Shown here: piece after piece, positions 7,601 to 64,000 of the stretch
How positions within the stretch are numbered: the stretch's first letter is position 1
Layout: every line of letters begins with the position of its first letter
From: Patescibacteria group bacterium
GTDB taxonomy: Bacteria > Patescibacteriota > Patescibacteriia > UBA10025 > JBIOWE01
NCBI GenBank assembly: GCA_044868145.1
Contig: JBIOWE010000004.1
Coordinates: 333,860-397,859, forward strand
Length of the DNA stretch: 64,000 bases
Direction: 5' to 3'
Notes under the pieces: generated by a model
Told to the model about the DNA's origin: nothing
The model's database searches: none
Seen by the model: only the letters and a program-made list of their open reading frames with translations
Position numbers and translations under genes: made by a program

Positions 7601-7757
7601 CGAGCATCCTCCTTTTGTTTTATTTTGAAACGGTAGTATACGGTAAATGAAGATTTTGTCAAGCGCTGATTGACAAAAAAGCTCCTATTACTATACAATA
7701 AAGGCGATATATTAATAAAAAGCCTTCCCAAAAGCTATTTGTGGAAGGTTTTTGTTT

Positions 7758-8351
7758 ATGGCGCATTTGCCAAAATTCAACATTTTCGGTCACGCACATT
7801 TTGTAACGACCAATACACATCATCGCAGGCATATTTTCCGTAATGAGAAATGTTGTGAAATTTTGATATCCGAGATTAATTTCTATCGCAACAAGTTAAG
7901 GTTCAAATTAATCGGATACTGTATTATGCTAGATCATTTGCACATGATAATTTGGTGGGATCCGGGGACCGTACCGCATTTAGTGGTCTCAGCAATTATG
8001 CATCGTATCAAAAACCATTCCGCCCGCTCGATCATCGATTCTGTATATCACACGGGTGGGCAAGGTCCCTTGACCTTGCCGCCGCGTGTGCGCCTGGGTC
8101 AAGGGACCCAGGCTACCCGAGCGGAATATCCACACAAGAGAATGAGCAGACAACAATATCAGGTATGGCAACCCTCTTTCTATGACTTTAATATTTATTC
8201 AGAGGATATGCTACATCAAAAATTAGATTATATTCACCTGAATCCTGTCCGTGCCGGGCTTGTGCGCGATCCTGTTGACTGGAAATATTCCTCTGCCCGA
8301 AATTACTATCTAGGAGACGAGTCAATGTTAAAGATTGATCGACTATTATAA
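7758..8351 (+). CDS. REP-associated tyrosine transposase (RAYT; IS200/IS605-like Y1 HuH transposase)
   Basis: About 197 aa with N-terminal GHAHFVTTNTHHRRHIF, the HuH motif DHLHMII and C-terminal LDYIHLNPVRAGLVRDPVDWKYSS, which is characteristic of RAYTs. A GGAAGG RBS sits 8 nt upstream of the ATG at 7758. GTAG-initiated palindromic REP-like repeats occur elsewhere in the window. Confidence 0.75.
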   Translation: MAHLPKFNIFGHAHFVTTNTHHRRHIFRNEKCCEILISEINFYRNKLRFKLIGYCIMLDHLHMIIWWDPGTVPHLVVSAIMHRIKNHSARSIIDSVYHTGGQGPLTLPPRVRLGQGTQATRAEYPHKRMSRQQYQVWQPSFYDFNIYSEDMLHQKLDYIHLNPVRAGLVRDPVDWKYSSARNYYLGDESMLKIDRLL

Positions 8352-29271: not shown

Positions 29272-29275
29272 CGCG

Positions 29276-36004: not shown

Positions 36005-37918
36005 ATGGTTGAATTTTTCCGAAAACGCACGCCATTGCCAACGGAGCCCCTTGGGCAGCTGACGTCCGAAGAGCAGCGTCGGCTCCGGGAGCAAACGATT
36101 GAGGAAAAAAAGGAAACTCTGGAAGCCGAGCAGGTGTACAGACGCGGTGTTGTCACCGTTCGGGATTTGATCGCGCCTTCGGCGATGAAGGTAGAACCAC
36201 GGTACATGGAGCTCAATGGCAGGTTTGTTCGGACGATTTTCGTCGTCGCCTATCCGCGCTACATTAGCGTTGGCTGGTTCGCGCCGATCATCAATTTAAA
36301 CACGCCGCTTGATATTTCAATGTTTTTTTACCCGCTTGGCTCCGAGGTCATTTTGAAGCAGCTAAGAAATAAAGTTGGCGCGTTGCAAGCGCAAATTCTC
36401 TCGGACGCGGAAAAAGGCGCGCCGCGCGATCCTATACGCGAAACTGCGCTTCGCGACATAGAAAAACTTCGCGACGACTTGACGCAAGGAATTGAGAAAT
36501 TTTTTCAATATGCGCTCTATGTAACGTTGTACGCGGATTCAAAGGAGCAGCTTGAACAAATTTCGGAAAAAGTGGAAACGCTGTTCGGAACCCGACTCAT
36601 TTATACCAAACGCGTTCTCTATCAAGCAGAGCAAGGTTTTAATTCAACCCTGCCCCTTGGAACGGACCAGCTCATGATTGCGTTTAACATGAATACGTCG
36701 CCATGCGCGTCGTCGTTTCCTTTTATTTCTTCCGAGCTTACGTCTGACAATGGTATTTTGTACGGTATTAACCGTCATAATAACAGTTTGATACTTTTCG
36801 ACCGGTTTTCGCTGCAAAACGCAAATTCCGTGGTGTTTGCGACGTCAGGCGCCGGCAAGAGTTACGCAATCAAACTCGAAGTGCTCCGCAGTATGATGCT
36901 CGGAACGGACGTTATTATTATTGACCCGGAACGCGAGTACAAATATTTATCCGATGCAGTAGGAGGGACGTACATAAACATCTCACTGAACTCGGAAAGT
37001 AAGATTAACCCCTTTGACTTGCCGAAAAATCCAGGCGACGAAAAGCCGGCAGACATCATTCGTTCGGCGGTCATTGCGCTCAAGGGTCTTGTTCGTTTGA
37101 TGCTCGGGGAGCTTTCCCACGAAGAGGACGCGATTGTTGATCGTGCGCTCATCGAGACCTATGCCAAAAAAGACATTACACCGGACGCGGACCTTTCCAA
37201 AGTCGAATCGCCTCTTATGAGCGACTTTCAGGAAGTGCTTTCCGGCATGGCTGGAGCGGACAATCTCGTTACGCGGCTGCGAAAGTTCACCGAAGGCACG
37301 TTTTCCGGGTTGTTCAATAGTCCGACAAACGTGGAGATTAATAATCAACTGGTTGTTTTCACTGTACGGGACTTGGAAGATGAGCTGCGACCTATCGGGA
37401 TCCAAATCATTATTGCGCATATTTGGAACGTCGTCCGCTCGCAACTGAAAAAACGCATTCTTGTTATTGACGAAGGATGGTGGCTGATGCAGCATGAAGA
37501 TTCGGCCAAGTTTATTTTCGCGCTCGTGAAGCGATGCCGAAAATATTACCTCGGCATTACGACGATTACGCAAGACGTCACTGACTTTTTACGGTCGCCG
37601 TATGGCCAAGCCATAGTGACCAACTCCTCCATTCAGTTGCTTATGAAACAGTCGCCCGCGGCCATTGATATCGTCGCGAAGACTTTTTTACTCACGGAGG
37701 GCGAACGGTACCTGCTCCTCGAGAGTAACGTTGGCGAGGGAATTTTCTTTGCGGGCGCCAAGCACGCCGCCATTAAGGTGGTTGCCTCCTACACCGAAGA
37801 TCAGGTGATTACGTCTGACCCGCGCCAGCTCTTAGAAATCGAGCAAGCAAAAAAGGAGTTTGAGCAACAGTTTGCAGAGCAAGGCGCTGAACGCCAGCCC
37901 CAGGCTGCCGCAACATAA
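36005..37918 (+). CDS. VirB4-like T4SS ATPase (central and C-terminal ATPase domains)
   Basis: 637 aa with Walker A FATSGAGKSYAIK and Walker B/helical region ILVIDEGWWLM. It continues the VirB4 N-region homology (GRFVRTIFVVAYPRYISVGWFAPIINLNTPLDISMFFYP). Confidence 0.8.
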   Translation: MVEFFRKRTPLPTEPLGQLTSEEQRRLREQTIEEKKETLEAEQVYRRGVVTVRDLIAPSAMKVEPRYMELNGRFVRTIFVVAYPRYISVGWFAPIINLNTPLDISMFFYPLGSEVILKQLRNKVGALQAQILSDAEKGAPRDPIRETALRDIEKLRDDLTQGIEKFFQYALYVTLYADSKEQLEQISEKVETLFGTRLIYTKRVLYQAEQGFNSTLPLGTDQLMIAFNMNTSPCASSFPFISSELTSDNGILYGINRHNNSLILFDRFSLQNANSVVFATSGAGKSYAIKLEVLRSMMLGTDVIIIDPEREYKYLSDAVGGTYINISLNSESKINPFDLPKNPGDEKPADIIRSAVIALKGLVRLMLGELSHEEDAIVDRALIETYAKKDITPDADLSKVESPLMSDFQEVLSGMAGADNLVTRLRKFTEGTFSGLFNSPTNVEINNQLVVFTVRDLEDELRPIGIQIIIAHIWNVVRSQLKKRILVIDEGWWLMQHEDSAKFIFALVKRCRKYYLGITTITQDVTDFLRSPYGQAIVTNSSIQLLMKQSPAAIDIVAKTFLLTEGERYLLLESNVGEGIFFAGAKHAAIKVVASYTEDQVITSDPRQLLEIEQAKKEFEQQFAEQGAERQPQAAAT

Positions 37919-38510: not shown

Positions 38511-39095
38511 ATGGCGAACGACATCGATAGCCTGCAGTCCGGACGAAGCCCGGGTTCGCGCGAGGAGCAGAAAACGATCGCGCAACAGCTTGAAAAAGAA
38601 ACGGCGCGCAAGATGTACCTGAACCGCCGCGCAACAGAGCAAACAACGCTTCGCGAGCTGCCGTCGAGTCGAACAACAAAACCAGAACAAGAAGAAGCGC
38701 GGTCCGAGGAAGAAGAATCTAGCCAGTCGTTCGTTGAGAATGAAGACCAGTCGAATGTGTCGCAGGGCCAGGAACGATCCGTGGCCAGTTCTTTTCAGCA
38801 AAAACTACAGATGGCCCGACAGGTCGCGAGCAAGGAGGTAAAAACAGAGATGTCAGTTGCTGCCGAAGCTACCGCAAAGGCTGCATCACGAGCCGCTGTT
38901 ATGGCTGTGCGAGGCGCGGCGCTTGCCGTGATCAACGCAGTCGGCGCGGTTATAGGATTTATTGCGGGGTTTGGCTGGCCGGTGTTACTTGGAATTTTAA
39001 TAGTTATTGTGCTTGGCTTTCTCATAAGTGATCCAGTATCTGCTTCCAAACTTGGCGTGTGCTTCATTGTTGAAGCCCTGGGCTTTAGTTGCTGA
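38511..39095 (+). CDS. hypothetical protein with an acidic N-terminal region and a C-terminal two-helix hydrophobic hairpin
   Basis: About 195 aa from the ATG at 38511. The C-terminus reads AAVMAVRGAALAVINAVGAVIGFIAGFGWPVLLGILIVIVLGFLI. Confidence 0.35.
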   Translation: MANDIDSLQSGRSPGSREEQKTIAQQLEKETARKMYLNRRATEQTTLRELPSSRTTKPEQEEARSEEEESSQSFVENEDQSNVSQGQERSVASSFQQKLQMARQVASKEVKTEMSVAAEATAKAASRAAVMAVRGAALAVINAVGAVIGFIAGFGWPVLLGILIVIVLGFLISDPVSASKLGVCFIVEALGFSC

Positions 39096-39100
39096 TAGAT

Positions 39101-40075
39101 ATGAATCATCGAACCAGAATTTTCCTCTTTTTTCTTGCAATCTTTGTTCTTTCTCTTTTTGTATTGCCGCACGCAGCCTCCGCCCAACTCCAGACGCTCA
39201 CGGACGTCTGCAAAGTGACAAATGAAAAGGACGCGATCCACCTGAATGTCGGGTTTTCGGTACCGGGCGTCATTTTCGAACTGCCCGCGGGCAGCGGCGA
39301 ATTTTACGTGAAGAATTTCGGATGCTATATCGGCGGGTTTTATCGTTACTTTGCCGGCGTGGCTGGCATTCTCGCGGCCGTGCTTATCATGTGGGGTGGG
39401 TATAAATACGTTACATCGTTCGGCAACCCTAGTAGACTCTCCGATGCGAAAGACACGATTCAACAGGCGTTGATTGGGCTCGCGTTCGTGCTCGGCACAT
39501 ACATTATTCTCTACACTATTAATCCGAACCTTGTCATTCTGCAAACGCCACAGTTGCCTATCATTCCTTCCGTTGAGCTCACCAAATCTTACGACTGGGA
39601 AAATGTACGATTCTGTCGAGAAAAAGCACAGTTTACAACTGCCAGCTGCGGAGGAATCTTCAATGCGGGTAAGACTGATGAGTGCCGAATGGTCAGCAAC
39701 GGTTGCAAGAATTCGAACGGCATTTGCGTGGCGGCCAAGAACAGTTACGCTGGATTAACGCGACCAGCCGATCTAAAACAAGGTGATATTTTCATCAATT
39801 GTCAGGAGTCAATATTGTTGTCCTACACAAAACCCGGGGAGTCCGAGGAGAAAGAGAGAACCTTGGTTGGAGATCCGAACGTGGACTGTGGCTACATCAA
39901 AGATGATATCGGCGGTCTACATTTAACCGGAAATCGAGGCGTTGGCATGAAATGCCCAGCGGATAAATATGGATGTGTGATTATTAATGACGCCGGGTTC
40001 GTGATTTACGGAGCGGGAGACTTACAACCTGGCAATGGAATTATTGGAGCATTTCTCAATGCAACATGCTATTAG
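39101..40075 (+). CDS. secreted protein with a pilin-like two-helix membrane module and a Cys-rich C-terminal domain
   Basis: Signal peptide MNHRTRIFLFFLAIFVLSLFVLPHAASA. The module GGFYRYFAGVAGILAAVLIMWGGYKYVTSFGNPSRLSDAKDTIQQALIGLAFVLGTYIILYTINPNLV is paralogous to the N-terminal region of the VirB1-like protein at 41346. The C-terminal domain carries about 12 Cys. Confidence 0.5.
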   Translation: MNHRTRIFLFFLAIFVLSLFVLPHAASAQLQTLTDVCKVTNEKDAIHLNVGFSVPGVIFELPAGSGEFYVKNFGCYIGGFYRYFAGVAGILAAVLIMWGGYKYVTSFGNPSRLSDAKDTIQQALIGLAFVLGTYIILYTINPNLVILQTPQLPIIPSVELTKSYDWENVRFCREKAQFTTASCGGIFNAGKTDECRMVSNGCKNSNGICVAAKNSYAGLTRPADLKQGDIFINCQESILLSYTKPGESEEKERTLVGDPNVDCGYIKDDIGGLHLTGNRGVGMKCPADKYGCVIINDAGFVIYGAGDLQPGNGIIGAFLNATCY

Positions 40076-40089
40076 AATAATAACGTACT

Positions 40090-41346
40090 ATGCGTAGAAT
40101 TTTTGTCATCGCTGGCTTCGCACTCCTTGTGGTAGGCATTGGTATTGCCATTTATTTTGTATTTTTCCGCGGCGCTGGTGGACCCACGAATAACGCGAAC
40201 GTCGGAAACGCGAACACGAACATTGGCGGTTTTCCTGTCACCAACGGCAACGTGAACGGCTCCATTGTAAACTTTACGGTTAACGGAAACGTCAACGTGG
40301 GAGGTCCAATTACGAATGCAGTCTTGCCGGAAATAGATACCATCGCTCGGGGAGGAAAAACGCTCACGAACGATCTTTCCCAACAAAGCATCATGGCTCC
40401 GTCGATCGGGCCAGACGGCAAAAGCGTCGTGTTTTACGATCCGATCACCGGACTGTTTTATGAGCTGTCGCCTGACGGAAAAACGAAACGACAGCTTTCC
40501 GACCAACGTTTTCCGAACGCCGAGAAAATATCCTGGGCGCCAGACGGCACCCGCGCCATTGTTACGTTTCCGGACGGAAGCAAAGTGCTGTACGATTTTT
40601 CGACCAAGCAACAAGTAACGCTCCCGCGCGAATGGGACAACATTGTGTTTTCCGGCGATGGAACAAAAATAGGGTTTAAAGACTTGCAGGAAAACGTGGA
40701 TAACCGGTGGCTCTCAATTGCGAATCCGGATGGGTCAAGCGTGCAATCGATTGAGCCAATTGGCGACAAAGGGGACGACGTTCAGGTTGCCTGGTCGCCG
40801 ACGAGCCAGGTGATAGCTTTATTCCGCGAGGGCAGTTCGGGTTCAACCCAGGAAGTGTTTCCCATTGGGCAGCACGGTGAGAACTTTAAATCCTTTGCCG
40901 TGGATGGCCGGGGCTTTGAAGGCGCATGGTCTCCGAAGGGCGACCGCTTGCTCTATAATGTGTTTAACGCGGGTTCGGACTACAAACCGACCCTTTGGAT
41001 CGTGGACGCATCGGGCGATAACATCGGGAACAACAACCGCGCTCTGGGCGTGCAAACCTGGGCGAATAAGTGCGTTTTCTCGAGCGATAACGTCACGATA
41101 TTTTGTGCGGTGCCGAGCGATTTACCAGAGGGAGCTGCGTTGTATCCGGACATCGCTCAAAACGTGCCGGATACGTTTTATCGCATCAATACACAAACGG
41201 GTTTGAGGACGGTTCTCGCGCAACCCGTCAATGCTCAAGGCGGCGGTTCGTATACGGTTCGATCGCCTTTTCTATCCGAAGGTGAACAGAATTTGTACTT
41301 CACGGATTCGTTGAGCGGGCGCCTCTATACAATTCAATTAAAATAA
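40090..41346 (+). CDS. TolB-like PD40/WD40-type beta-propeller protein, membrane-anchored
   Basis: 418 aa with N-terminal TM and repeated SWAPDGTRAIV / VFSGDGTKIGF / AWSPTSQVIAL / AWSPKGDRLLY blades. Confidence 0.55.
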   Translation: MRRIFVIAGFALLVVGIGIAIYFVFFRGAGGPTNNANVGNANTNIGGFPVTNGNVNGSIVNFTVNGNVNVGGPITNAVLPEIDTIARGGKTLTNDLSQQSIMAPSIGPDGKSVVFYDPITGLFYELSPDGKTKRQLSDQRFPNAEKISWAPDGTRAIVTFPDGSKVLYDFSTKQQVTLPREWDNIVFSGDGTKIGFKDLQENVDNRWLSIANPDGSSVQSIEPIGDKGDDVQVAWSPTSQVIALFREGSSGSTQEVFPIGQHGENFKSFAVDGRGFEGAWSPKGDRLLYNVFNAGSDYKPTLWIVDASGDNIGNNNRALGVQTWANKCVFSSDNVTIFCAVPSDLPEGAALYPDIAQNVPDTFYRINTQTGLRTVLAQPVNAQGGGSYTVRSPFLSEGEQNLYFTDSLSGRLYTIQLK

Positions 41347-42356
41347 TGGTCATAAGATTTTCTTTTCGCAAGGCCGTTCTTATTGGGCTTGCATTGGTTT
41401 TTGCATTCGTTATGTTCAACGTCCTTGCGTTAGCCGCGCACGCTCAACAGGATACGTCAAAGGGCGCAACTTTTCGTCCGAACATCACTATTCCCGGCTC
41501 CAAGTTTATCGCAGGCCAAGAAGTCGTAATTAACGGTGATACCATCGGCGAATGGATCGCCGCGTTTTACGTATTTTTTGTCGGCATCGCCGGCATACTT
41601 GCCACAGTCATGATTATGTGGGGCGGCTACAAGTATATTACCTCATTCGGCAATGCAACGCGCACGCAGGGCGCAAAAGATACGATCACCCAGGCGCTCA
41701 TCGGTTTAGCAATGACGCTCGGCGCTTACATTATCCTCCTCACCATCAATCCGAACCTCGTGCAGTTTAAAAGCTTGACGTTGGCGCCGATTCCCTCTCA
41801 CGAACTTGGCGAGCGCGGGGAAGCAAGTCTCAAAGGCGCGGCGCACTGGGACGGCAATAACGTGGCGACCTACGACAATCTCTTGAGAGCTGCGGCGGAT
41901 AGCTACGGACTTGACCGCGATTGGATGAAAGCAATTATGCTTGTTGAGTCAGGCGGGAATCCGAACGCGGTGTCGCCCGCGCAGGCATGCGGGCTTATGC
42001 AGCTTCTGCCTTCCACGGCGAACTTGACGTGTGAGCAACTAAAGAATCCCGCAGCAAACATTGACGCGGCAGGGAAGTATTTGCGAAGCCTGACGAACCT
42101 GACGTGCCCGCAAAATGCAACGTTGAGAGACAATACGGCTGTTTCCTGTGATCCGAGAAAAACGAAATGTCGAAACGGCGATATTCATTACATCGTGGCC
42201 GCGTACAACGGTGGCGTTGGGGCGAACTGTTCAAGCGTTTCTTGCCCGGGCAGTACCTGGTGGGAATGCCCGGTGAACACAGGATTTGACGAAACGAGAA
42301 GTTACGTTCAACTGGTCCAAACCGCATACGACAAAATAAAGCTGAATGGGTGGTAG
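41346..42356 (+). CDS. VirB1-like lytic transglycosylase (SLT domain) with an N-terminal pilin-like membrane module
   Basis: 336 aa. The N-terminal module IAAFYVFFVGIAGILATVMIMWGGYKYITSFGNATRTQGAKDTITQALIGLAMTLGAYIILLTINPNLV matches that of 39101. The SLT catalytic region is DRDWMKAIMLVESGGNPNAVSPAQACGLMQLLPSTA (ES...GLMQ). Confidence 0.7.
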   Translation: MVIRFSFRKAVLIGLALVFAFVMFNVLALAAHAQQDTSKGATFRPNITIPGSKFIAGQEVVINGDTIGEWIAAFYVFFVGIAGILATVMIMWGGYKYITSFGNATRTQGAKDTITQALIGLAMTLGAYIILLTINPNLVQFKSLTLAPIPSHELGERGEASLKGAAHWDGNNVATYDNLLRAAADSYGLDRDWMKAIMLVESGGNPNAVSPAQACGLMQLLPSTANLTCEQLKNPAANIDAAGKYLRSLTNLTCPQNATLRDNTAVSCDPRKTKCRNGDIHYIVAAYNGGVGANCSSVSCPGSTWWECPVNTGFDETRSYVQLVQTAYDKIKLNGW

Positions 42357-54091: not shown

Positions 54092-54994
54092 TTAGCCCAT
54101 GTGTCGAAGCGCCGCGATTCGTTCCTCGATCGGAGGATGCGTTGAGAAGAGGCGAGCCAGTCCTGACATTGCTTTCGCACCGAAAGGATTCGAGATAAAG
54201 AGATGCGCTGTGGCGTTGTTCGCTCGTTGCATTGGCTGTTGTTCGCGTCCGATTTTTTCCAACGCCTTGGCAAGACCTTCTGGATAGCGCGTCAGCAAAG
54301 CGCCGGACGCGTCCGCAAGCAATTCTCTGCGTCGAGAAACTGCGAGTTTAATTAATTGCGCGATAATCGGCGAAAATATGAGCAAGACCAATCCGATGGC
54401 GAAGAGGATAATCTGTGCTTGACCGCCGCCCCGGTTTCCGCCGCCCCTCCCACCACCGATAAATCGGACGCGGAAAAACCAGTTCCCGAGCAGAGCCACC
54501 ACGCCGACAAGAACGAGGACGATCATCATCAACCGAATGTCGTAGTTTTTGATGTGCGAAAGTTCATGACCAATAACGCCTTCGAGCTCCTCGTTCTCCA
54601 ATTTTTCAATTGCGCCCGTCGTAATGGCGAGAGAAGCGCGCTTTGGGTCACGACCGGTGGCGAAAGCGTTAATGGCCGGGTCATTAATGATATAGACCCT
54701 TGGTACAGGAAGGCCGGATGCAATGCAAAGGTTTTCCACCATGCGATAGACATACGGGTTTTCATCTTTGGCGATCGGATGTGCGCCTGATGCCGCGAGT
54801 GCTATTTTATCGCCGGAAAAGTAGCTGACGAGCGTCATAACGAACGCGATCATTCCCGCAATAATCAACCCTGCATAGCCCGATTCCGACGTCTGGCCGA
54901 ACACCCAGCCCAAGAAGAGAACAAACCCTATGAATAATAGAATGAGTATAAACGATTTTCTCTTATTGGCACCTATGTAGGAATATGTCGTCAT
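54092..54994 (-). CDS. htpX: zinc metalloprotease HtpX (M48 family)
   Basis: 300 aa with HELSHIKNYD (HExxH), a Gly-rich GGGRGGGNRGGG loop and 4 TM helices. Confidence 0.85.
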   Translation of the reverse strand: MTTYSYIGANKRKSFILILLFIGFVLFLGWVFGQTSESGYAGLIIAGMIAFVMTLVSYFSGDKIALAASGAHPIAKDENPYVYRMVENLCIASGLPVPRVYIINDPAINAFATGRDPKRASLAITTGAIEKLENEELEGVIGHELSHIKNYDIRLMMIVLVLVGVVALLGNWFFRVRFIGGGRGGGNRGGGQAQIILFAIGLVLLIFSPIIAQLIKLAVSRRRELLADASGALLTRYPEGLAKALEKIGREQQPMQRANNATAHLFISNPFGAKAMSGLARLFSTHPPIEERIAALRHMG

Positions 54995-55437: not shown

Positions 55438-56001
55438 CTAAAACTTCACCTTGACCGGTTCTCGTGCAGCACCTTCCGCCTCTTCCAGCTCAAAGAATTC
55501 GAAGGGTTTGAAGCCCATCATGCCGGCGATGAGTGAGTTCGGAAATACTTGCATCGCTGTGTTGAAGTCGCGGACATTGCCGTTGTAGAATCGACGCGCC
55601 GCCTGAATTTTGTTTTCCGTGTCCGATAGTTCGTCCTGGAGTTTTGCGAAGTTTTCGTTTGCTTTTAACTGAGGGTAATTCTCCGCCAGCGCGAACAGAC
55701 TTTTCAGTGCGCCGGACAGCATGTTCTCCGCTTGACCTTTTTCCCCGGCGCCTTGCGCGCCCATTGCTTTCGACCGAGCTTCTGTAACTTTATAGAACAC
55801 TTCCTTCTCGTGCGCCGCGTAGCCCTTTACCGTTTCCATCAAGTTTGGAATGAGGTCGTAGCGACGTTTGAGCTGCACGTCGATGTCGGCCCACGCTTCG
55901 TTCGTCTGATTTCGTTTCCGAATCAGGCTGTTATAAACGCCGACGAGCCAGAATACCACAAGGGCGATTGCAGCGAGGATGATCCATGTAACAGTTGACA
56001 T
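55438..56001 (-). CDS. lemA: LemA family protein
   Basis: 187 aa with an N-terminal TM and the LemA signature NSLIRKRNQTNEAWADIDVQLKRRYDLIPNL. Confidence 0.8.
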   Translation of the reverse strand: MSTVTWIILAAIALVVFWLVGVYNSLIRKRNQTNEAWADIDVQLKRRYDLIPNLMETVKGYAAHEKEVFYKVTEARSKAMGAQGAGEKGQAENMLSGALKSLFALAENYPQLKANENFAKLQDELSDTENKIQAARRFYNGNVRDFNTAMQVFPNSLIAGMMGFKPFEFFELEEAEGAAREPVKVKF

Positions 56002-56048: not shown

Positions 56049-56528
56049 TTATTTGATATTGATAAGATAAATAAGATCCGCGTCGACGACAAGTTGTGCA
56101 TTTGCATTTTTCGACGACTGGACGATAACCGTATTGCCGTTATGCAGGTCCGCTTTCTGTACTTCGGTTGTTTGTGAATAAAACGCGTCCGTGTTGGTCC
56201 TCTTGTTTGTCGTATTGATGCGTACGATCCTTGTTGCGTTCGTTATGTTGACCGTAAATGAATAGGAAGTTCGCTTGGCAGTGGATGGATCGGTTACCTG
56301 CACTTTCACGGCTAACGCGTTATCGTTCACGTCGGTAATTTCTCCGCGCCATTGGTACATGGGTTGCTGCGTTTGCTGCGACGCTATGTAAGATTCTATG
56401 GTTTTAACCGTTTGTTCTTCATTCTTTTGCGATCGAATTTCAGTCAGAAGCAGCACAACGACCAAAGCGGCAAAGGTAATGAGGATCGTAATCTCCAATA
56501 AAAATTTTTTATTTTCTTTTCTTGACAT
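56049..56528 (-). CDS. hypothetical membrane-anchored protein
   Basis: About 160 aa from the ATG at 56528 (MSRKENKKFLLEITILITFAALVVVLL). Its start codon overlaps the -35 of the divergent promoter. Confidence 0.4.
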   Translation of the reverse strand: MSRKENKKFLLEITILITFAALVVVLLLTEIRSQKNEEQTVKTIESYIASQQTQQPMYQWRGEITDVNDNALAVKVQVTDPSTAKRTSYSFTVNITNATRIVRINTTNKRTNTDAFYSQTTEVQKADLHNGNTVIVQSSKNANAQLVVDADLIYLINIK

Positions 56529-56550
56529 TTTCAAGAAATCTTGGTACAAT
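56522..56550 (+). promoter_or_regulatory. near-consensus sigma70 promoter (TTGACA-17-TACAAT) for the first YVTN-propeller paralog
   Basis: ttgaca at 56522-56527, a 17-nt spacer, and tacaat at 56545-56550. Confidence 0.55.
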
Positions 56551-56637
56551 GAATCAGTACGAAAAACGGTTTCATGAGTTGATTATCACGTATTTTCGTG
56601 ATTCTGTCAATTTATTTACCATTTTAAAACAAACAGA

Positions 56638-59600
56638 AGTGCGGGAGAGACGAACAAAAGAAAAAACTGTATCAGCATGGGTGCGTGTTTCTCTCTTTTC
56701 TTCTTTTTTGATTGCCATAATCGTTTTCTTTTCAAGCGCTGGAGTCTCCGCGTTAATTCAAGAGCCAACCGACGTACCACCCGGAGACAACCTCTCCGGT
56801 TTTCTTGATGTTGGGCCATTGAGTCAGGCAAAGCGGGGCGCGCTTCGCCTCGGAAGCAACGTAACGTCCAGCACACAGCTTGATGTCAACGGGTCAGGGT
56901 ACCTCAATGCGCTGACCGTCGATCAGAATCTCACCGTGAATGGCAATACGCTTTTTGTTGACTCGCAAAATAATCGGATTGGACTTGGGACGTTGACGCC
57001 TGCGTATACGCTTGACGTCCTCGGGGGTGGCGTGAGCGTTACGACGCCAGTTTCCGGTGCATGGGGAGTCGCCGTCTGGAGCAGTGACCATGATGCTAGC
57101 TATGGAAAAGGCGCTTCTGGAATCCAAGCGACAAACAATCATGGTGACGGTTCCGGCGTGTGGGGATCGAGTGCATCCACATATGGTTTGTTTGGCGAAA
57201 GTACGAATGGTTCCGGCGTTATTGGTCGCGTAACAGGACTAGCCGGCGGATACGGCGTCTACGCGATGAATGCAAACGTCACAACAGGTTGGGCAGGATA
57301 TTTTACGGGACGTCTTTTTTCATCGAACGACGTGATTGGCCGCAGATTTTTGCCGGAACAATTGCAATCGTCGCTTGTGCCATTCGCGCAAGGCCAGGAA
57401 CTTTCCACGCGGAGCACGTATAATTTATACAAACCGCGCGATCTGGCATTCGACGGAACAAACATCTGGGTGTTGCGCGATCAATTCAGCGGCGAAGTTT
57501 CCAAAGTCCGTCCTGAAGACGGTTTGAAGCTTTCCGACGTTTTGCTTGATGATCCCCAAGGCCGCGAGCCAACGCGATTGATTTACGCCGCGAACTACCT
57601 TTGGACGTCGAATAAAAGCGGCACGAATGTGACGCGTATTGACCCTGCGACAAGCACGCAAACGCATTTTTCAACTGTACCGATTGGTGTCAACTGCGCT
57701 GATCTCACCCAATCGGAGGGTACGTATTATGTTGGTTGTAACCCGACTGCGCTGGTGTATGACAGCGCCACTGCGGGCGGCCCATATGTGTGGGTGTCGA
57801 GTTATACTGACCCGCAGCCGTCTAACGGTACGCTTGGCACGAGCAGTATTGTTCGCATCCGCTTGTCCGACGGAGTGCGCACAGGATTCCTTTTGCAAAA
57901 TTCGGGCAGCGTCCTCGGGGTGAATCCCGTGGCCATTGCGTTTGACGGAACAAATATTTGGACAGTCAATTTTGGCATTCACGGAAGTATCGGTACGCCA
58001 AATGCTCCTGTCACCTTGGCTGACAGCGTTACCAAGTTCCAGGCATCGGACGGTGCGTTCCTCGGGACGTTTTCGCTCGGTACGTGCAACTACCCCATTG
58101 ATATCGTTTACGAAAATGTAGGCAGTCGCCTGTGGGTAGTCTGCAATCAAATGCGTTCATGGGAGAATAATGTGATTCGTTTTAATCCATCTTCGAATGC
58201 CGCGGACGGGGCGTTTTTGTCTGGTGGAGATTATCCCAACCGCATTGCCGTGGACAGCATTACCTCGACCGGTCCGTATGTCTGGGTAACGCATCTCCAA
58301 GGCGTCTCGCGACTCAAAGCATCCGACGGATCTGTTGTGGGACCTTTTACAACGGGCGCAAGTCCCGGCGGGATGACCACGGAGAAAACGTACACGCAAG
58401 GTGCGACAACGTATACGTATCTCTGGACCGCCGATAATCTGTCCTATCAACTTTCCAAGTTCAAGTCGAGCGATGGTGTGCTACAAGGCAATTTTGTGAT
58501 CGAGGGAACCGAGGTCGCAGGAATGACTTTTGACGGAACATACGTATGGACCGCGAACAAAAATTCACGCACGGTCTTTAAAATACGCGTGGCTGACGGC
58601 CAACGGGTTGGCGCCTATACGCTGAATGCGCCGAGCCCACGCCAAGTGTTGTACGACGGTCAAAACGTTTGGGTAACACATTTTTACAGTTATACGCAAA
58701 CGTCAATTTCAAAATTGCGCGCGAGTGATGGCACATTACTCTTTGAAAAAGTATTGACACAAGCGCATGCTGATCCGAAAGGTATGTTCCTTGATACGGT
58801 TACGTCCGGTGGACCGTATGTATGGATCCTCGTGGCAGGTTGGGGTATTCCGAATGAAAGCCATCTTATCCGCTACAAAATTTCCGACAATAGCGAAACA
58901 CGTTTCAACCTGGGTCTCAATACCGCATTGAACCCCCAAGCGCCCGCAAGTATGGTATATGACGGGCAATATCTTTGGATAAGCGCATTCTATGATCCGG
59001 ATCCCAATACCATCAATACCGCGGGCGAGACGTCGAGCCTCGTTCGGGTAGATATTCAGAGTTGTTCAGGCTCATGCTCGATCTTCATAACAACTCCTCC
59101 GTCAGGCCATTACTTACCTCTCGGTATTGCATACGACGGTAAATATCTTTGGACCGCTAATTCTGGGGTAGGCAGCGTGAGTAAGTGGAATCCTAACGGC
59201 GATGGCACCGTAACAGAAATCGCTAATTATCCTGTGAATGTGGATACGTCGGCTGGCCAGCCAGTAGACAACCCGCGCCAAGTTGTTTTTGACGGAACGT
59301 TTGTGTGGGTGGGACTCACGAAGCGAATAGACACGAACAATTATCTTTCCATTCTCCGAGCATCCGACGGAGCAGTTGTTAAAAACAATATCCAGTATGC
59401 GAGCTACGTTTCGCCCGCGAGTTTTGCGTTCGATGGAAGTTTTGTCTGGCTCGGCGGGGATTATTTGAAGGGACTGTACAAATTTTACTCTGGTGCTGGA
59501 TATGGTAAAGAAATTATCGAAGGGGTGGTCCGCCTGCAGAACAGCGTACCGGGTGAATTGGACACTGGCAATATCAATGTGAGCGGAATAGGGACAATTG

Positions 59601-59782
59601 GCGGAAACGCGATTGTGGGCGCAAACGTCATCGCTTCGAGCAACGCATGGGGAGGCGCATCAGATACGCTTGTCAATGTCGCTGGACAAGGGACATATAA
59701 CTGTCCCGACGGTTATTTCGTTAAAGATATTGTGGTGGACGGGAGCAATAACCCGACGCAATTAAAATGCAGGCCATTGTAA
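56638..59782 (+). CDS. secreted tail-fibre-like / YVTN-type beta-propeller repeat protein, paralog 1
   Basis: Up to 1086 aa. The start is uncertain: the GTG at 56638 gives MRERRTKEK + hydrophobic signal-anchor, and the ORF-track start lies inside the promoter. It has an N-terminal Gly-rich repeat region (QLDVNGSGYLNALTVDQNLTVNGNTLFVDSQNNRIGLGT...), at least 9 repeats of the motif [AV]FDG[TSQK]x[IVL]W[VT], and the C-terminal tail CPDGYFVKDIVVDGSNNPTQLKCRPL. Confidence 0.6.
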
Positions 59783-59795
59783 TAACCATATCATG

Positions 59796-59822
59796 GTAGG
59801 TCGGGGCCAGGCTCCGACCTAC
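59796..59822. repeat. REP-like palindrome, copy 3 (GTAGGTCGGGGCCAGGCTCCGACCTAC)
   Basis: Near-identical to copy 1. It sits just upstream of paralog 2, and the ORF-track ATG at 59793 immediately abuts its GTAG. Confidence 0.65.
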
Positions 59823-59834
59823 GAAGTCACTGAA

Positions 59835-61838
59835 ATGCAAAAACGAATGAGACAAATGAAAGCTGTATACGCAAAACCCCTTGTTATTATGGGTATGGCT
59901 TCGGTCATAATCGGAATGTCGTTTATTTTACACGCGACGCAAGCCGCGTGGGTTGACCCCGGATCTCCTGCGCCGCAGGACAACATTTATCAGCTTATTA
60001 ATATTGGTTCAACTGATCAGGTACGACAAGGTAAACTGCTTCTCAGCCGAGATTATAAACCGGAAGAGACGTTAACGCTGAGCTACCCGCTTGAAGTTGT
60101 CGGACAGCCGCTTGCCACGGGGTTTAACGTGTCTGGTCTGCTTACCCTGGACGGAAATTTGATCGTTGACACAAACACACTGTATGTAGACAGCACGAGC
60201 AACCTCATCGGCATAGGCCTTGCTCCTGACCCTGCCTACAAGCTGACTATTACAGGTGGTGGAAACGGATTGCGCATCGGCGGCGGTTCAGGGGTCGCTG
60301 GTCCAGCATTGAACGTGAGCGCAGTTGGCAACAGTGCGATTTACGCAAAATCACTTGGGTCAACAGCGACGTACGCAGCGATCTTTGGCGAAGGTGTCAC
60401 GGGCGATGGAATCAACGGAATCAATAACTATGCAGGTGCAGTAACAACAAATATCCCCGCGGGCGCGCGAGGAGCCAACACTGGTGCCAGCCCTGGAGCG
60501 CCGGGAGTTCTTGGGACGACTGCAAGCGCAACTGGCGCAAGCGTGCGTGGTGAACTAACGGATCTAATGAACATCAACGGTTGGGCAGGCTATTTTGCCG
60601 GACGCGTGCGCGCGTCGTCGGACGTCGTTGGTAATAAATTTATTCCATCCGCGTTCCAACAATCCGTGCTTCCATATATCACCGATTATTCGCTGGGGGA
60701 TTACGCTGCGAGCACTTCCCCGTCTAGCCTTGCGTTCGATGGCAGTTCCGTTTGGGTGGCGAACGCTGGCTCGACGAACGTTTCCAAAATCCGCGCTTCA
60801 GACGGAAAAAAGATATTCGACGTGAATATGGGCTTTACCCCGCTCGACGTTGTGTTCGATGGCCAAAATGTCTGGGTATCGTATAACAACAGCGGTGGAA
60901 AATTGGCAAAGCTGAACCCGCAAGATGGTTCTATCGCACTGACGATTGATACCTCGCCGCGGTCGGACCTTCAAAATCTGCTCATTACGTTCGATGGAAC
61001 GCTGAAATATATTTGGGCAGCGTCGTCGAGCGGGAATGAGGTGCGACGGTATGCCGTTGATGGCAGCAGTCTCTGCTCGTATGGCACTAATCTCTCAAAT
61101 CCTCAAGGACTCGCCTACGATGGTACAAACATTTGGATAGCAAGTAGAAGCAACAATACGGTGCACCGCATTCAATCCAGTTGTGCGGTAAGCAATTTTC
61201 TCTCCGGCTCGAATCAAGTCGCCGTGAATGCGCCGAACAGACTCCTGTTCGACAACACGAATATGTGGGTGGTGAGTGACGCTGCGTCGGGAACGGGCAA
61301 CGTTACACGGATTTCATCGAGTGGCGCCACGACGTCTCACTCCACTGCGGTTGCAAGCGCGTTTGACTTGTCGTTCGACGGATCATTTGTCTGGATTACG
61401 CACAACAGCGGCACGATCGTTCGAATGAGCGCTCAAACGGGCCAGGCCGTCAAAACGTTCGATGCGAATGGCGCGTCCGCAAACAATGGCCGAGGTATTG
61501 TCTATGATGGCACATACATGTGGATTGGCTATGACGCTGGAACGACAATTTCAAAATACGTCACAGGAACCGGCTGGTCGCAGCCCGACCTTGCTGGCTA
61601 TCTTTTTTTGCAAAACGTTAGTCCATTTATTACGCAAACCGGCAGCTTCAATATCTCCGGCACTAGTGTTATCGGCACCTCACTGACTGTCGCGGGCAAT
61701 CTCGATGCGACGGCTAATACTTGGAATGGGATCGATGCAACACCTGCGCCGGGCAGCGGGTGTTTGAATGGACAATTCGTTAAAGGATTTACGTTGACGG
61801 GCTCTGGAATTGTGAATTTGATATGTAGACCATTATAA
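59835..61838 (+). CDS. secreted tail-fibre-like / YVTN-type beta-propeller repeat protein, paralog 2
   Basis: About 667 aa from MQKRMRQMKAVYAKPLVIMGMASVIIGMSF (signal-anchor). It has a Gly-rich N-region, FDG..VW repeats (LAFDGSSVWVAN, VVFDGQNVWVSY, LAYDGTNIWIAS, LSFDGSFVWITH, IVYDGTYMWIGY) and the tail CLNGQFVKGFTLTGSGIVNLICRPL. Confidence 0.6.
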   Translation: MQKRMRQMKAVYAKPLVIMGMASVIIGMSFILHATQAAWVDPGSPAPQDNIYQLINIGSTDQVRQGKLLLSRDYKPEETLTLSYPLEVVGQPLATGFNVSGLLTLDGNLIVDTNTLYVDSTSNLIGIGLAPDPAYKLTITGGGNGLRIGGGSGVAGPALNVSAVGNSAIYAKSLGSTATYAAIFGEGVTGDGINGINNYAGAVTTNIPAGARGANTGASPGAPGVLGTTASATGASVRGELTDLMNINGWAGYFAGRVRASSDVVGNKFIPSAFQQSVLPYITDYSLGDYAASTSPSSLAFDGSSVWVANAGSTNVSKIRASDGKKIFDVNMGFTPLDVVFDGQNVWVSYNNSGGKLAKLNPQDGSIALTIDTSPRSDLQNLLITFDGTLKYIWAASSSGNEVRRYAVDGSSLCSYGTNLSNPQGLAYDGTNIWIASRSNNTVHRIQSSCAVSNFLSGSNQVAVNAPNRLLFDNTNMWVVSDAASGTGNVTRISSSGATTSHSTAVASAFDLSFDGSFVWITHNSGTIVRMSAQTGQAVKTFDANGASANNGRGIVYDGTYMWIGYDAGTTISKYVTGTGWSQPDLAGYLFLQNVSPFITQTGSFNISGTSVIGTSLTVAGNLDATANTWNGIDATPAPGSGCLNGQFVKGFTLTGSGIVNLICRPL

Positions 61839-61844
61839 ATATTG

Positions 61845-61873
61845 ACCTTGGTCAGGGCGAGGCCCTGACCTAC
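61845..61873. repeat. REP-like palindrome, copy 4 (variant: GGTCAGGGCGAGGCCCTGACCTAC)
   Basis: Perfect 9-bp arms with a CTAC 3' end, sharing the GCC..GACCTAC architecture. It sits just upstream of paralog 3. Confidence 0.5.
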
Positions 61874-61885
61874 GAGCGTGCTGAA

Positions 61886-63844
61886 ATGAAAAATCGAAAG
61901 CAACAACAGAAAAGAATAAAGAAATTTGCAGTTGTCTGCTTCATGTTTAGCGTTGTCGCAATTGTGTTGTTATTTGGATTCGGCATTGCCCGCGGTCAAT
62001 GGCAAGAGCCGACGGTCCCGCCGCCCGGATCAAATGTATCAGCGCCGATCAGTGTTGACGATCTAGTGGAAGCGAAGCAAGGCGGGCTGCTCATTGACCC
62101 AACGTATGTACTGGGAAGCGCCTTCTCATTACGTGGTGGTTCAAAGCTCGATGTCCGTGGCGAGGTGAAAGTTACGGGCACCTCCGCGGAGGTCGGTGGC
62201 GGCCTACAGATAGACAATTCGAGCGACGATTCTCTTGTTGTCTCGGGTACGCAAGTAGGTATTGGCACGGATGCGTTCGGTGTGGGGTACAAACTGACCG
62301 TAAATGGCGGCGGCATTGGCATTGGTTCGGAGGCGACGCCAGTGAGTAGTGACGGCGTGTATGCCTACAGCAATAATAACTGGGGGATTATCGCCGCCAG
62401 TACGGATGCTTCGGGCCGGGGCGCGGCATACGGCGAATATGCAGCCGGGTACGGCGTGCACGGCAAGAGTACTGCCGGCGCTGGCGTTATGGGTCAGTCC
62501 GCGGTGGGTTACGGCGTGTATGCGCACACAGCAAACGGCGGCACAACGTTACTCGGCGTGAATACGCTCACCGCCGGCAATTTCTGGGCGGGATATTTCG
62601 TGGGCAAACTCGGCGCAAGCGATGAAGTCGTTGGCGCGAAATTTTTGCCGACAAAATTGCAAAACTCACTCGTGCCGTACACGGTTGGTTGGCGGCAAAC
62701 ATTTACAACGGCCGTCGATGGTCCCGCGAACCTCGCGTTTGACGGCACGTACATCTGGGCCGCGAACGTGAACAGCACGACGGTTTCGAAGATTCGCGCG
62801 AGCGACGGGGTGAAAGTAACGGACGTGACCATTGGCAATGGAGTTCTTGACGTGGTGTTTGACGGAAGTTTTGTCTGGGTGTCTCGCTCCGGCGCATCGA
62901 ACCAGTTGGCAAAAGTTAATCCGTGGACTAATGCGATCGTCGCAACCTATGGCATTGACGCGAATGCGGCGAATCTACTTGTAACATCAGAAGGTGCGAA
63001 CACGTTTATCTGGTACGCGTCTACGTCAACGAATGCGGTACGCAAGTTGAACGCGAACGGCGTGCTGCAATGTTCGGCATCCGGACTCTCAACGCCGCGC
63101 GGGCTCGCGTACGACGGGATAAATGTGTGGGTTGCGAACAACGGAGCAAACAATGTTCTACGCATAAACTCAACATGCGGCAGTGTGGGCTCGTCTGTCG
63201 CTGTGACCGCACCGTTCAGACTCGCCTTTGACGGTTCTTACATGTGGGCGACAACGCGCAACGCCAGCTCGACAAACAACGTTACGAAAATATACGGCGC
63301 TGATGGCGTGATTGCGGGAACGTATTCAACGGGCGTGGCCCAGGCGAATGATTTAGCGTTCGACGGAACATTCTTCTGGGTGACGCACGATACCGCGGTT
63401 GTACGCATAGGCGCTGGCGACGGAACCGTGTATCCGGCGTTGACCAACCCGGGCGGTAACGCGTCAGGGGTCGTGTTCGACGGCACATACGCGTGGGTCG
63501 GGAAAGGATCAGGTAATGCGGTTGATCGCTATTACTCTGGCTCTGGCTGGGGTCATACCGACCCTTCAAGCATGGTCCAACTGCAAAGCTCGACGCCAGG
63601 CACTGCTCAAATCGGAGGATTCGCCATCACAGGGTCGGCCACGCTTGGCGGAAGCTTACAAGTCAACACAGGCGATCTGTCCGTGACCGGCAATACCTGG
63701 GGTGGGACAGCTGATCAATCAACTAGCGTTTCCGGAAATTCAGGAACAAATTCCTATAATTGCTCAACGAACGGATATTTCGTGAAAGGCATTGAGGTGA
63801 ACGCGTTCGGGCAAATCGTCAACTTTTTCTGTAGGCCACTATGA
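61886..63844 (+). CDS. secreted tail-fibre-like / YVTN-type beta-propeller repeat protein, paralog 3
   Basis: 652 aa with MKNRKQQQKRIKKFAVVCFMFSVVAIVLLFGF (signal-anchor), a Gly-rich N-region, FDG..W repeats (LAFDGTYIWAAN, VVFDGSFVWVSR, LAYDGINVWVAN, LAFDGSYMWATT, LAFDGTFFWVTH, VVFDGTYAWVGK) and the tail CSTNGYFVKGIEVNAFGQIVNFFCRPL. Confidence 0.6.
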   Translation: MKNRKQQQKRIKKFAVVCFMFSVVAIVLLFGFGIARGQWQEPTVPPPGSNVSAPISVDDLVEAKQGGLLIDPTYVLGSAFSLRGGSKLDVRGEVKVTGTSAEVGGGLQIDNSSDDSLVVSGTQVGIGTDAFGVGYKLTVNGGGIGIGSEATPVSSDGVYAYSNNNWGIIAASTDASGRGAAYGEYAAGYGVHGKSTAGAGVMGQSAVGYGVYAHTANGGTTLLGVNTLTAGNFWAGYFVGKLGASDEVVGAKFLPTKLQNSLVPYTVGWRQTFTTAVDGPANLAFDGTYIWAANVNSTTVSKIRASDGVKVTDVTIGNGVLDVVFDGSFVWVSRSGASNQLAKVNPWTNAIVATYGIDANAANLLVTSEGANTFIWYASTSTNAVRKLNANGVLQCSASGLSTPRGLAYDGINVWVANNGANNVLRINSTCGSVGSSVAVTAPFRLAFDGSYMWATTRNASSTNNVTKIYGADGVIAGTYSTGVAQANDLAFDGTFFWVTHDTAVVRIGAGDGTVYPALTNPGGNASGVVFDGTYAWVGKGSGNAVDRYYSGSGWGHTDPSSMVQLQSSTPGTAQIGGFAITGSATLGGSLQVNTGDLSVTGNTWGGTADQSTSVSGNSGTNSYNCSTNGYFVKGIEVNAFGQIVNFFCRPL

Positions 63845-64000
63845 AGAAAAATTTTTACCGAGCTTCAGCTCAGGGTGCAAGAATTATGGCTTTAGCCATT
63901 ACGAAGCATGCTCAATAAGATAAATCCATATTGGCCAAATAATACTACCTATTTCTTAACTGGCTCTACCTTCCTCCACTATCCTTATTTTAAAGAAGAT

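Follow-up and report, generated by a model that had tools for sequence, protein, structure and literature searches.

Three tandem genes near the end of a 64-kb stretch of Patescibacteria DNA (contig JBIOWE010000004.1; the whole 64,000 nucleotides analysed are referred to here as the window) each encode a protein that closes with the same short, cysteine-bracketed tail. We assign a probability of about 0.6 to the reading that this tail is a family-specific, disulfide-stapled beta-hairpin, which caps the end of a conserved scaffold on secreted surface proteins. In a lineage-specific family of secreted Patescibacteria (candidate phyla radiation, CPR, bacteria) surface proteins, the tail would form the final 25–40 residues. 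A role as a cleaved sorting signal is not supported.

Translation of the open reading frames (ORFs) confirmed that all three proteins end in C-x2-3-G-[YQ]-F-V-K...C-R-P-L-stop, as had been described in an earlier reading of this sequence (the original prediction). A six-frame scan of the window revealed no further C-[RK]-P-[LIVM]-stop ending and no further G-x-F-V-K within 25 residues of a stop. At the DNA level, only 34 of about 90 nucleotide columns are invariant among the three tails, which differ at synonymous sites. The similarity is therefore kept at the protein level, and recent gene conversion was rejected as its source. Overall, the three proteins are about 34% identical.

To place these endings in a wider context, we searched all of 1.84 billion protein representatives with a 33-column tail profile. 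The search returned 55 proteins at E ≤ 1e-3 (best 5.5e-13), including the gene 1 tail as P0122 (E 2.6e-12). Nearly all matches lie at the exact C-terminus and about 47 of them are real tails, a likeness far beyond chance. Furthermore, we compared eight loci, namely the window and seven more (L001, L003, L004, L005, L006, L007 and L011). A search with a gene-1-type alignment yielded three genome loci and four metagenome loci. Pooling the database matches with these loci gave 62 distinct tails. Counting back from the last residue (−1), Cys(−4) is present in 62/62 tails, Arg(−3) in 58/62 and Leu(−1) in 59/62, with Pro or Gly at −2 in 52/62 and Ile or Leu at −6 in 54/62. The most frequent spacing of the two cysteines is 22 (36/59). 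Among the database matches, CRPL (25) and CRGL (9) are the main endings, followed by CRQL, CRAL, CREL, CRSL, CRRL, CAPL, CGPL, CRPI, CQGI and CRGM with one or two cases each. The C-terminal tripeptide, originally taken to be invariant, thus varies across the family, and the consensus is C-R-x-L-COOH. Gene 2 of both L001 and L007 ends in C-x-x-x-D-[VI]-YYNRSG-x3-L-[LM]-CRPL and retains C-R-P-L although the first strand is remodelled. No match to the tail was found in Pfam, NCBIfam or PHROGs with the three proteins, or in Pfam and NCBIfam with 43 tails, and a profile search of PDB sequences gave nothing below E 0.4.

Two database entries show the tail in unusual surroundings. P0137 (L011, 8538–12017) has Q in place of two stop codons that lie in frame; correctly read, gene 3 of this locus ends in ...CSGL-stop. 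Its apparent C-terminal extension is read-through by the gene caller and was rejected as a genuine addition to the tail; some database 'extensions' past the tail are therefore gene-calling artefacts. P0155 is a type IV pilin-like protein of 244 amino acids (aa) with an N_methyl motif. It lies outside the trio family, matches the tail profile at E 2e-4 and carries two tandem C-terminal hairpins, CPVGQYVRGINYDASNHTFKISCRD and CPAGQFVRGFSLSGRPQC. As a structural unit, the hairpin is therefore not bound to the chain end.

The tail belongs to a defined protein architecture. A search with full-length gene 3 retrieved P0001, P0005 and about a dozen relatives alike at both ends of the protein, together with more than 100 propeller-only homologues from other phyla that have neither the N-terminal module (N-module) nor the tail. 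The N-module comprises a signal-peptide-like leader followed by W-x-E-P-x3-P-P-x2-N ... Q-x-K-x-G-x-L-x-L ... DTLYVD..N.VGIGT, and in gene 1 it reads LIQEPTDVPPGDN...QAKRGALRLG...NRIGLGT. Signal peptides were judged by eye; on inspection, the N-termini of the trio show an n-region, an h-region and an A-x-A-type site directly before the conserved W-x-E-P motif. All tail-bearing proteins with an intact N-terminus carry this same N-module. Conversely, 35 of 37 N-module carriers end in the tail; of the two that do not, one is an artefact of gene calling. Upstream of the tail lies a C-terminal module, LQNS...QTGxFNISG. The middle domain is a YVTN-like propeller in the window trio, so that gene 1, for instance, consists of signal peptide, N-module, long YVTN-like propeller repeats, LQNS...NISG module and tail. 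In P0010, P0013 and gene 1 of L005, BNR/sortilin-like repeats abut the tail directly, and a laminin-G domain occupies the middle of L001 gene 2 and L011 gene 3. None of the three trio proteins has a significant Pfam or NCBIfam family, and both the family and its three-gene cassette, for which these databases hold no model, appear undescribed. In gene 1 (residues 125–175) and gene 2 (residues 118–163), the stalk motif TLYVD..N.IGIGT..P.Y.L.V.GGG gives a match to phrog_5906, a family of phage proteins with unknown function (E 3.5e-7 and 2.6e-5), which hints at a relationship between the N-module and phage fibre-like proteins.

Structure prediction places the tail apart from the propeller. The AlphaFold2 (AF2) model of the full gene 3 protein starts with an N-terminal hydrophobic helix and a low-confidence, beta-rich stalk (residues 17–246). 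These are followed by a seven-bladed propeller (residues 250–531, 28 strands) with predicted local distance difference test (pLDDT) values above 90, a low-confidence linker, and a separate C-terminal hairpin (E612–619/E625–632). From residue 591 to the C-terminus, the mean pLDDT of consecutive ten-residue blocks is 71, 64, 81, 84 and 68. A second AF2 model, calculated for the last 101 residues with 18 sequences, contains the same hairpin (E80–87/E93–100, pLDDT 77–89) with a short strand ahead of it. The short hairpin expected from the sequence was thus recovered with the same two strands in both models. The proposed location outside the propeller also holds, with seven blades closed without any contribution from the tail; for the same reason, the tail was rejected as a closing 'velcro' strand. 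Foldseek relates the gene 3 propeller to YVTN, Vgb-lyase and WD40 propellers, including the archaeal S-layer YVTN domain 1l0q (E 9.4e-14) and Vgb lyase (1.8e-12), with template modelling scores to the target of 0.59–0.85. With the model of the C-terminal module, it returned noise at E above 5.

Of the 21 trio proteins, 18 have an even number of cysteines in their mature part (one-sided binomial p about 7e-4), as do 29 of the 35 family members taken from the database. Genes 2 and 3 of the window contain exactly four cysteines each, arranged in two local pairs with spacings of 35–36 and 21–23. Such even counts fit intramolecular disulfides and would argue against a free, modified or inter-chain Cys(−4). 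As for the disulfide-bracketed hairpin of the original prediction, its hairpin is predicted, its two cysteines behave as an invariant pair with Cys(−4) universal among the tails, and the bond itself is probably formed, judging by the invariance and parity of the cysteines. Parity, together with the signal-peptide-like N-termini, also points to a likely extracellular location.

From these observations we infer a scaffold and end-cap role for the hairpin. Strand 1 would be formed by G-x-[FY]-[VI]-K-x-[IV] and strand 2 by [VI]-x-x-[IL]-x-C-R-x-L. A disulfide would join the cysteine before strand 1 to Cys(−4) and close the hairpin, and the chain would stop three residues later. The tail would be inherited vertically, with genes 1–3 keeping the N-module and the C-terminal cap around a middle 'head' that is swapped between YVTN propeller, BNR/sortilin-like propeller and laminin-G. 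The hairpin may thereby lock the C-terminus of a scaffold made up of the N-module and the LQNS...NISG module, which would display a variable and probably adhesive head outside the cell.

The eight loci (GC content 41–55%) share one gene order, in which HtpX, LemA and a protein of about 170 aa are encoded divergently from gene 1, gene 2 and gene 3. More specifically, exactly three genes diverge from the HtpX-LemA block in each locus, and each of them has an N-module and a C-x-x-L-COOH end. Across L003–L007, best hits for both N- and C-termini are position-specific (gene 1 to gene 1, gene 2 to gene 2, gene 3 to gene 3) and intergenic gaps are short, indicating that the trio is an ancient, conserved three-gene cassette with three orthologous groups. 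The trio genes of the window are more divergent, and their best matches are only mostly positional. Here, gene 1 finds its best N-terminal matches in gene 1 of L001 and L004 and its top C-terminal match in gene 1 of L004, and the C-terminus of gene 2 is nearest to gene 2 of L005, L003, L006 and L004. In all seven other loci, the gene after gene 3, which sometimes overlaps it, encodes a giant protein (over 1200 to 5629 aa), so that the conserved cassette may comprise four genes. The giant protein has an N-terminal membrane anchor and matches to fn3, Laminin_G_3 and DUF7948, and no C-R-x-L tail. In the window (63842–64000), the stop of gene 3 overlaps (ATGA) with a 25-codon ORF, after which comes the 5' portion of a further ORF, MLNKINPYWPNNTTYFLTGSTFLHYPYF..., similar to IS200-like Y1 transposases at their N-termini. 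A second Y1_Tnp ORF is present at 7752–8351.

Upstream, the small membrane protein is always located between LemA and gene 1. It measures 166–177 aa across the window (166 aa), L003–L007 and L011, and it has no Pfam or NCBIfam family in any of them. ClpB follows further upstream in the window, L003, L004 and L005, the loci with long enough flanks, and a ComF-like gene lies beyond ClpB in the window, L004 and L005. The window also encodes LeuRS, HisRS and RecG, and its context is that of a Patescibacteria/CPR genome. Two of the seven other loci are titled Patescibacteria group bacterium. L006 (CAYPXF010000005.1) is titled 'uncultured Gammaproteobacteria bacterium' yet shows the Patescibacteria-type HtpX-LemA-trio synteny, and this contig is probably mis-binned.

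A start of gene 1 at the beginning of its longest ORF is doubtful: a strong sigma-70-like site with an extended TG, TTGACA-17-TACAAT (11/12; region 56522–56650), falls exactly on the TTG that opens this ORF. The true start is probably the GTG at 56639, which would give a typical K/R-rich leader; the database version, P0122, begins at the ATG at 56549. Gene 2, whose database counterpart is P0005, begins 10 nucleotides past gene 1, and the database version of gene 3 begins 19 residues downstream of the ORF start. All feature coordinates are collected in Table 1.

Table 1. Coordinates of the trio, its parts and related features in the window and in the compared loci
Feature	Location	Strand	Remarks
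Gene 1	56522..59782	+	1086 aa, longest ORF
Gene 2	59793..61838	+	681 aa; N-module, propeller, tail
Gene 3	61886..63844	+	652 aa; matches database protein P0001
Gene 1 tail	59702..59782	+	CPDGYFVKDIVVDGSNNPTQLKCRPL and TAA stop
Gene 2 tail	61761..61838	+	CLNGQFVKGFTLTGSGIVNLICRPL and TAA stop
Gene 3 tail	63761..63844	+	CSTNGYFVKGIEVNAFGQIVNFFCRPL and TGA stop; predicted hairpin strands GYFVKGIE, IVNFFCRP
Gene 3 signal peptide	about 61886-61996	+
Gene 3 N-module	about 61997-62680	+
Gene 3 seven-bladed propeller	about 62690-63535	+	AF2
Gene 3 C-terminal module	63536-63841	+
Single-pass membrane protein	56049..56549	-	166 aa; adjoins gene 1, divergent; conserved in every locus examined
LemA family protein	55438..56001	-	PF04011, 2e-63; conserved neighbour
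M48 zinc metalloprotease, HtpX type	54092..54994	-	PF01435, 1.7e-32; NCBIfam HtpX, 4.7e-99; conserved neighbour
TrbL/VirB6-like protein	29183-32053		type IV secretion system-like cluster
VirB4/TraG P-loop ATPase	36005-37918		type IV secretion system-like cluster
T4SS_pilin-like proteins	39089-40075; 41346-42356		type IV secretion system-like cluster; the second fused to SLT transglycosylase
Cassette genes with deviant tails	L001 231-4937; L001 5025-9884; L007 10171-13734		gene 1; gene 2; gene 2
Giant protein downstream of gene 3	L001 12132-21122; L003 19874-end; L004 14297-end; L005 17643-end; L006 13263-end; L007 15990-end; L011 12091-end

The original prediction saw in the tail a likely sorting, anchoring or secretion signal, and this part of it is not supported as far as signals of the usual kind are concerned. 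Only three residues follow the second cysteine, and the 62 tails show neither a transmembrane segment nor a basic cluster: within the final 45 aa, the maximum 15-residue Kyte-Doolittle mean never exceeds 1.13 and its median is 0.50, and there is a single Arg at −3, with a median of two Arg and Lys residues in the last ten. The tail is also restricted to one family. Among the 233 ORFs of at least 100 aa in about 200 kb of the eight loci, it occurs on the three cassette genes alone; 23 of these ORFs end in C-x-x-[LIMV], comprising 22 cassette genes and one shadow ORF inside ClpB. Confinement to the three genes, with no associated processing machinery, had been named in advance as the outcome that would speak for simple paralogy, and the restriction seen over these about 200 kb comes close to it. 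No sortase, exosortase, rhombosortase or CPBP protease was detected among the window ORFs scanned with Pfam. A co-occurring processing enzyme had been suggested as something to look for; the only protease nearby is a housekeeping HtpX.

A classical tripartite signal of the LPXTG, PEP-CTERM, MYXO-CTERM or type IX secretion system (T9SS) kind, cleaved by a dedicated enzyme, is hardly credible in view of these results. The conserved C-terminal motif, the invariant cysteine and the export of the proteins do give the tail a superficial likeness to known Cys-containing C-terminal sorting signals. In those signals, a motif goes together with a transmembrane helix and a cluster of Arg residues; they are found on many proteins unrelated to each other, and an intramembrane protease is their partner (10.1101/2023.06.07.544157). 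The original statement that no known sortase, PEP-CTERM or T9SS motif matches the tail remains valid, as no sorting domain of Pfam or NCBIfam was matched. For the T9SS C-terminal domain in particular, neither TIGR04183 nor Pfam matched the three proteins or the 43 tails, and the tail spans 25–40 aa compared with about 80–100 aa for that beta-sandwich domain. Secretion by a type IV secretion system (T4SS) is likewise unlikely, since the trio carries export signals and housekeeping genes separate it from the T4SS-like cluster of the window (29–42 kb). Nor were T4SS genes noticed within the flanking DNA (roughly 10 kb) at the other loci. The cluster follows a giant protein of 2626 aa with weak CBM_4_9 and dockerin matches, the whole region extending over 21391–42356.

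The position of the cysteine also invites an analogy with CaaX-type lipidation, in which Cys(−4) would carry a lipid and the neighbouring M48 peptidase would cut off the last three residues in the manner of Ste24, so that the protein would be anchored in a membrane. Cys(−4) in all 62 tails and an M48 peptidase three genes upstream in all loci agree with this analogy. The a1 and a2 positions are nevertheless Arg and Pro or Gly instead of aliphatic residues, Cys(−4) is paired with a partner cysteine within even total counts, and the trio proteins carry export signals. CaaX prenylation is cytosolic. The peptidase itself scores as HtpX (4.7e-99 and 331 bits against the best NCBIfam HtpX equivalog, just below the 355-bit cut-off). 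It is paired with LemA inside a longer block of synteny that reaches from ComF/ClpB to HtpX, and M48 was rejected as a tail-processing enzyme on these grounds. The LemA-HtpX pair is widespread. Lipidation of this type would therefore be very improbable.

Several observations weigh against a purely structural cap. Conservation in the tail is highest over its final four residues (4.3, 3.9, 2.6 and 4.0 bits over the 62 tails), and the chain length after the second cysteine is fixed. This is a tighter constraint than a mere cap would require, and it would fit a tag that a partner recognises. Gene 1 of L001 keeps ...NAITKLLCRPL with the nearby first cysteine and strand 1 lost, so the tetrapeptide can apparently persist without the canonical hairpin. 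Furthermore, the N-module and the LQNS module, which would form the scaffold, are modelled at pLDDT below 50.

These points lend some weight to a non-classical C-terminal docking or recognition tag, an alternative that we regard as possible and still rather unlikely. Here, a partner would bind the hairpin, which would be exposed and would offer a free carboxyl end at C-R-x-L, and the secreted subunits would be retained or assembled, uncleaved, on the cell surface. Tentative candidates for the partner are the giant membrane-anchored protein, the membrane protein of about 170 aa, and a PDZ-like or cell-wall component. Both the near-invariance of C-R-x-L-COOH and its fixed position at the end of the 62 tails agree with such a tag, as does the retention of the tetrapeptide where strand 1 is lost. 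The signal-peptide-like N-termini with A-x-A-type sites leave the proteins with no other obvious anchor, and the trio co-occurs with the small membrane protein upstream and, in the other loci, with the giant anchored protein downstream. On the other hand, the tail never occurs on a protein without the N-module and is thus indistinguishable from an ordinary conserved domain end, and the same hairpin stands internally and in tandem in the pilin-like P0155. A more far-reaching version, to which we give little credence, is that the C-R-x-L-COOH hairpin is a new, uncleaved docking signal of one Patescibacteria clade that would mount the three secreted, head-bearing trio subunits on the giant anchored protein or the 170-aa membrane protein and so build a host-attachment appendage.

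Assembly between chains was considered as well. In this case, genes 1–3 would form a heterotrimeric fibre, and the C-terminal cysteine pair would make transient or permanent inter-chain disulfides that register the chains. Each locus has exactly three distinct, co-transcribed and position-conserved paralogs. The proteins contain tail-fibre-like motifs, N.VGIGT..P..L.V.GG (phrog_5906) and QTGxFNISG, the stalk regions model poorly as monomers, and there is a precedent for C-terminal cysteines in trimer assembly (PMC3357383). However, the middle domains and lengths of the three genes (650 to 1600 aa) differ greatly, which is awkward for a parallel trimer. Intrachain pairs explain the even cysteine parity equally well, and AF2 puts both cysteines on one hairpin of one chain. 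We therefore consider a heterotrimer improbable, and the disulfide-stapled end-cap remains our preferred reading.

Patescibacteria are mostly uncultured episymbionts, and to our knowledge it is largely unknown how they hold on to their hosts. The family described here, with its fixed N-module, exchangeable heads, fixed disulfide-hairpin end, three-gene cassette and conserved neighbours, is a recognisable candidate for a surface or adhesion module. Taken by itself, the tail is most likely a structural device of an ordinary kind, and its importance would grow only if C-R-x-L turned out to serve as a docking signal. It has long been suspected that the attachment of Patescibacteria is mediated by large extracellular proteins containing Cys (PMC4736985).

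Among known systems, the tail appears in function to resemble most the C-terminal disulfide loop of type IVa pilins, by analogy, although the trio proteins are not pilins. In the D-region of these pilins (for example the PAK pilin of P. aeruginosa), the loop ends two to three residues past the second cysteine and is important for stability, assembly and adhesion. Both cases present a Cys-bracketed loop or hairpin at the C-terminus of an exported surface protein. In contrast to pilins, the trio proteins have ordinary signal-peptide-like N-termini, with no class III (prepilin) leader and no Pfam N_methyl match in genes 1–3. They measure 650 to over 1000 aa with propeller heads, and no sequence homology to pilins was found.

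Other likenesses are more limited. With the Cys-containing sorting signals mentioned above (10.1101/2023.06.07.544157), the tail shares an invariant cysteine in a short conserved C-terminal motif of exported proteins; it differs in having three residues past the cysteine, in its restriction to one family, and in that no such protease was seen. The eukaryotic CaaX box, processed by Ste24/Rce1, is comparable in the cysteine at −4 and, in the trio, the M48-family peptidase encoded nearby. It is set apart by the Arg and Pro/Gly of the trio at the 'aa' positions, the export of the trio proteins, their paired cysteine and the HtpX type of the peptidase. In the beta-prism of vitelline membrane outer layer protein I (VMO-I, PDB 1vmo), hairpin units of the form C-P-x-G-[YH]-h-V...h-x-h-x-C are closed by a disulfide, and the last unit ends two residues past the cysteine. 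The trio tail is a single unit and not a three-fold prism, and homology was rejected (hhalign probability of 6% over 10 columns, CPxGYhV; Pfam VOMI, PF03762, not matched).

The C-terminal cysteine annulus of the P22 tailspike offers a further parallel, as cysteines near the C-terminus of this elongated adhesin are implicated in assembly and are reduced in the native trimer (PMC3357383). The trio has no sequence similarity to the tailspike, and a trimeric state of the trio is hypothetical. The seven-bladed, YVTN-like middle domain of the trio resembles YVTN/YncE-type propellers such as 1l0q (Foldseek E about 1e-13). This likeness concerns the head domain only, and the hundreds of propeller homologues of other phyla lack the N-module and the tail. 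Taken together, a terminal disulfide hairpin on an extracellular protein is an already known device, and it is the family and its cassette that appear undescribed.

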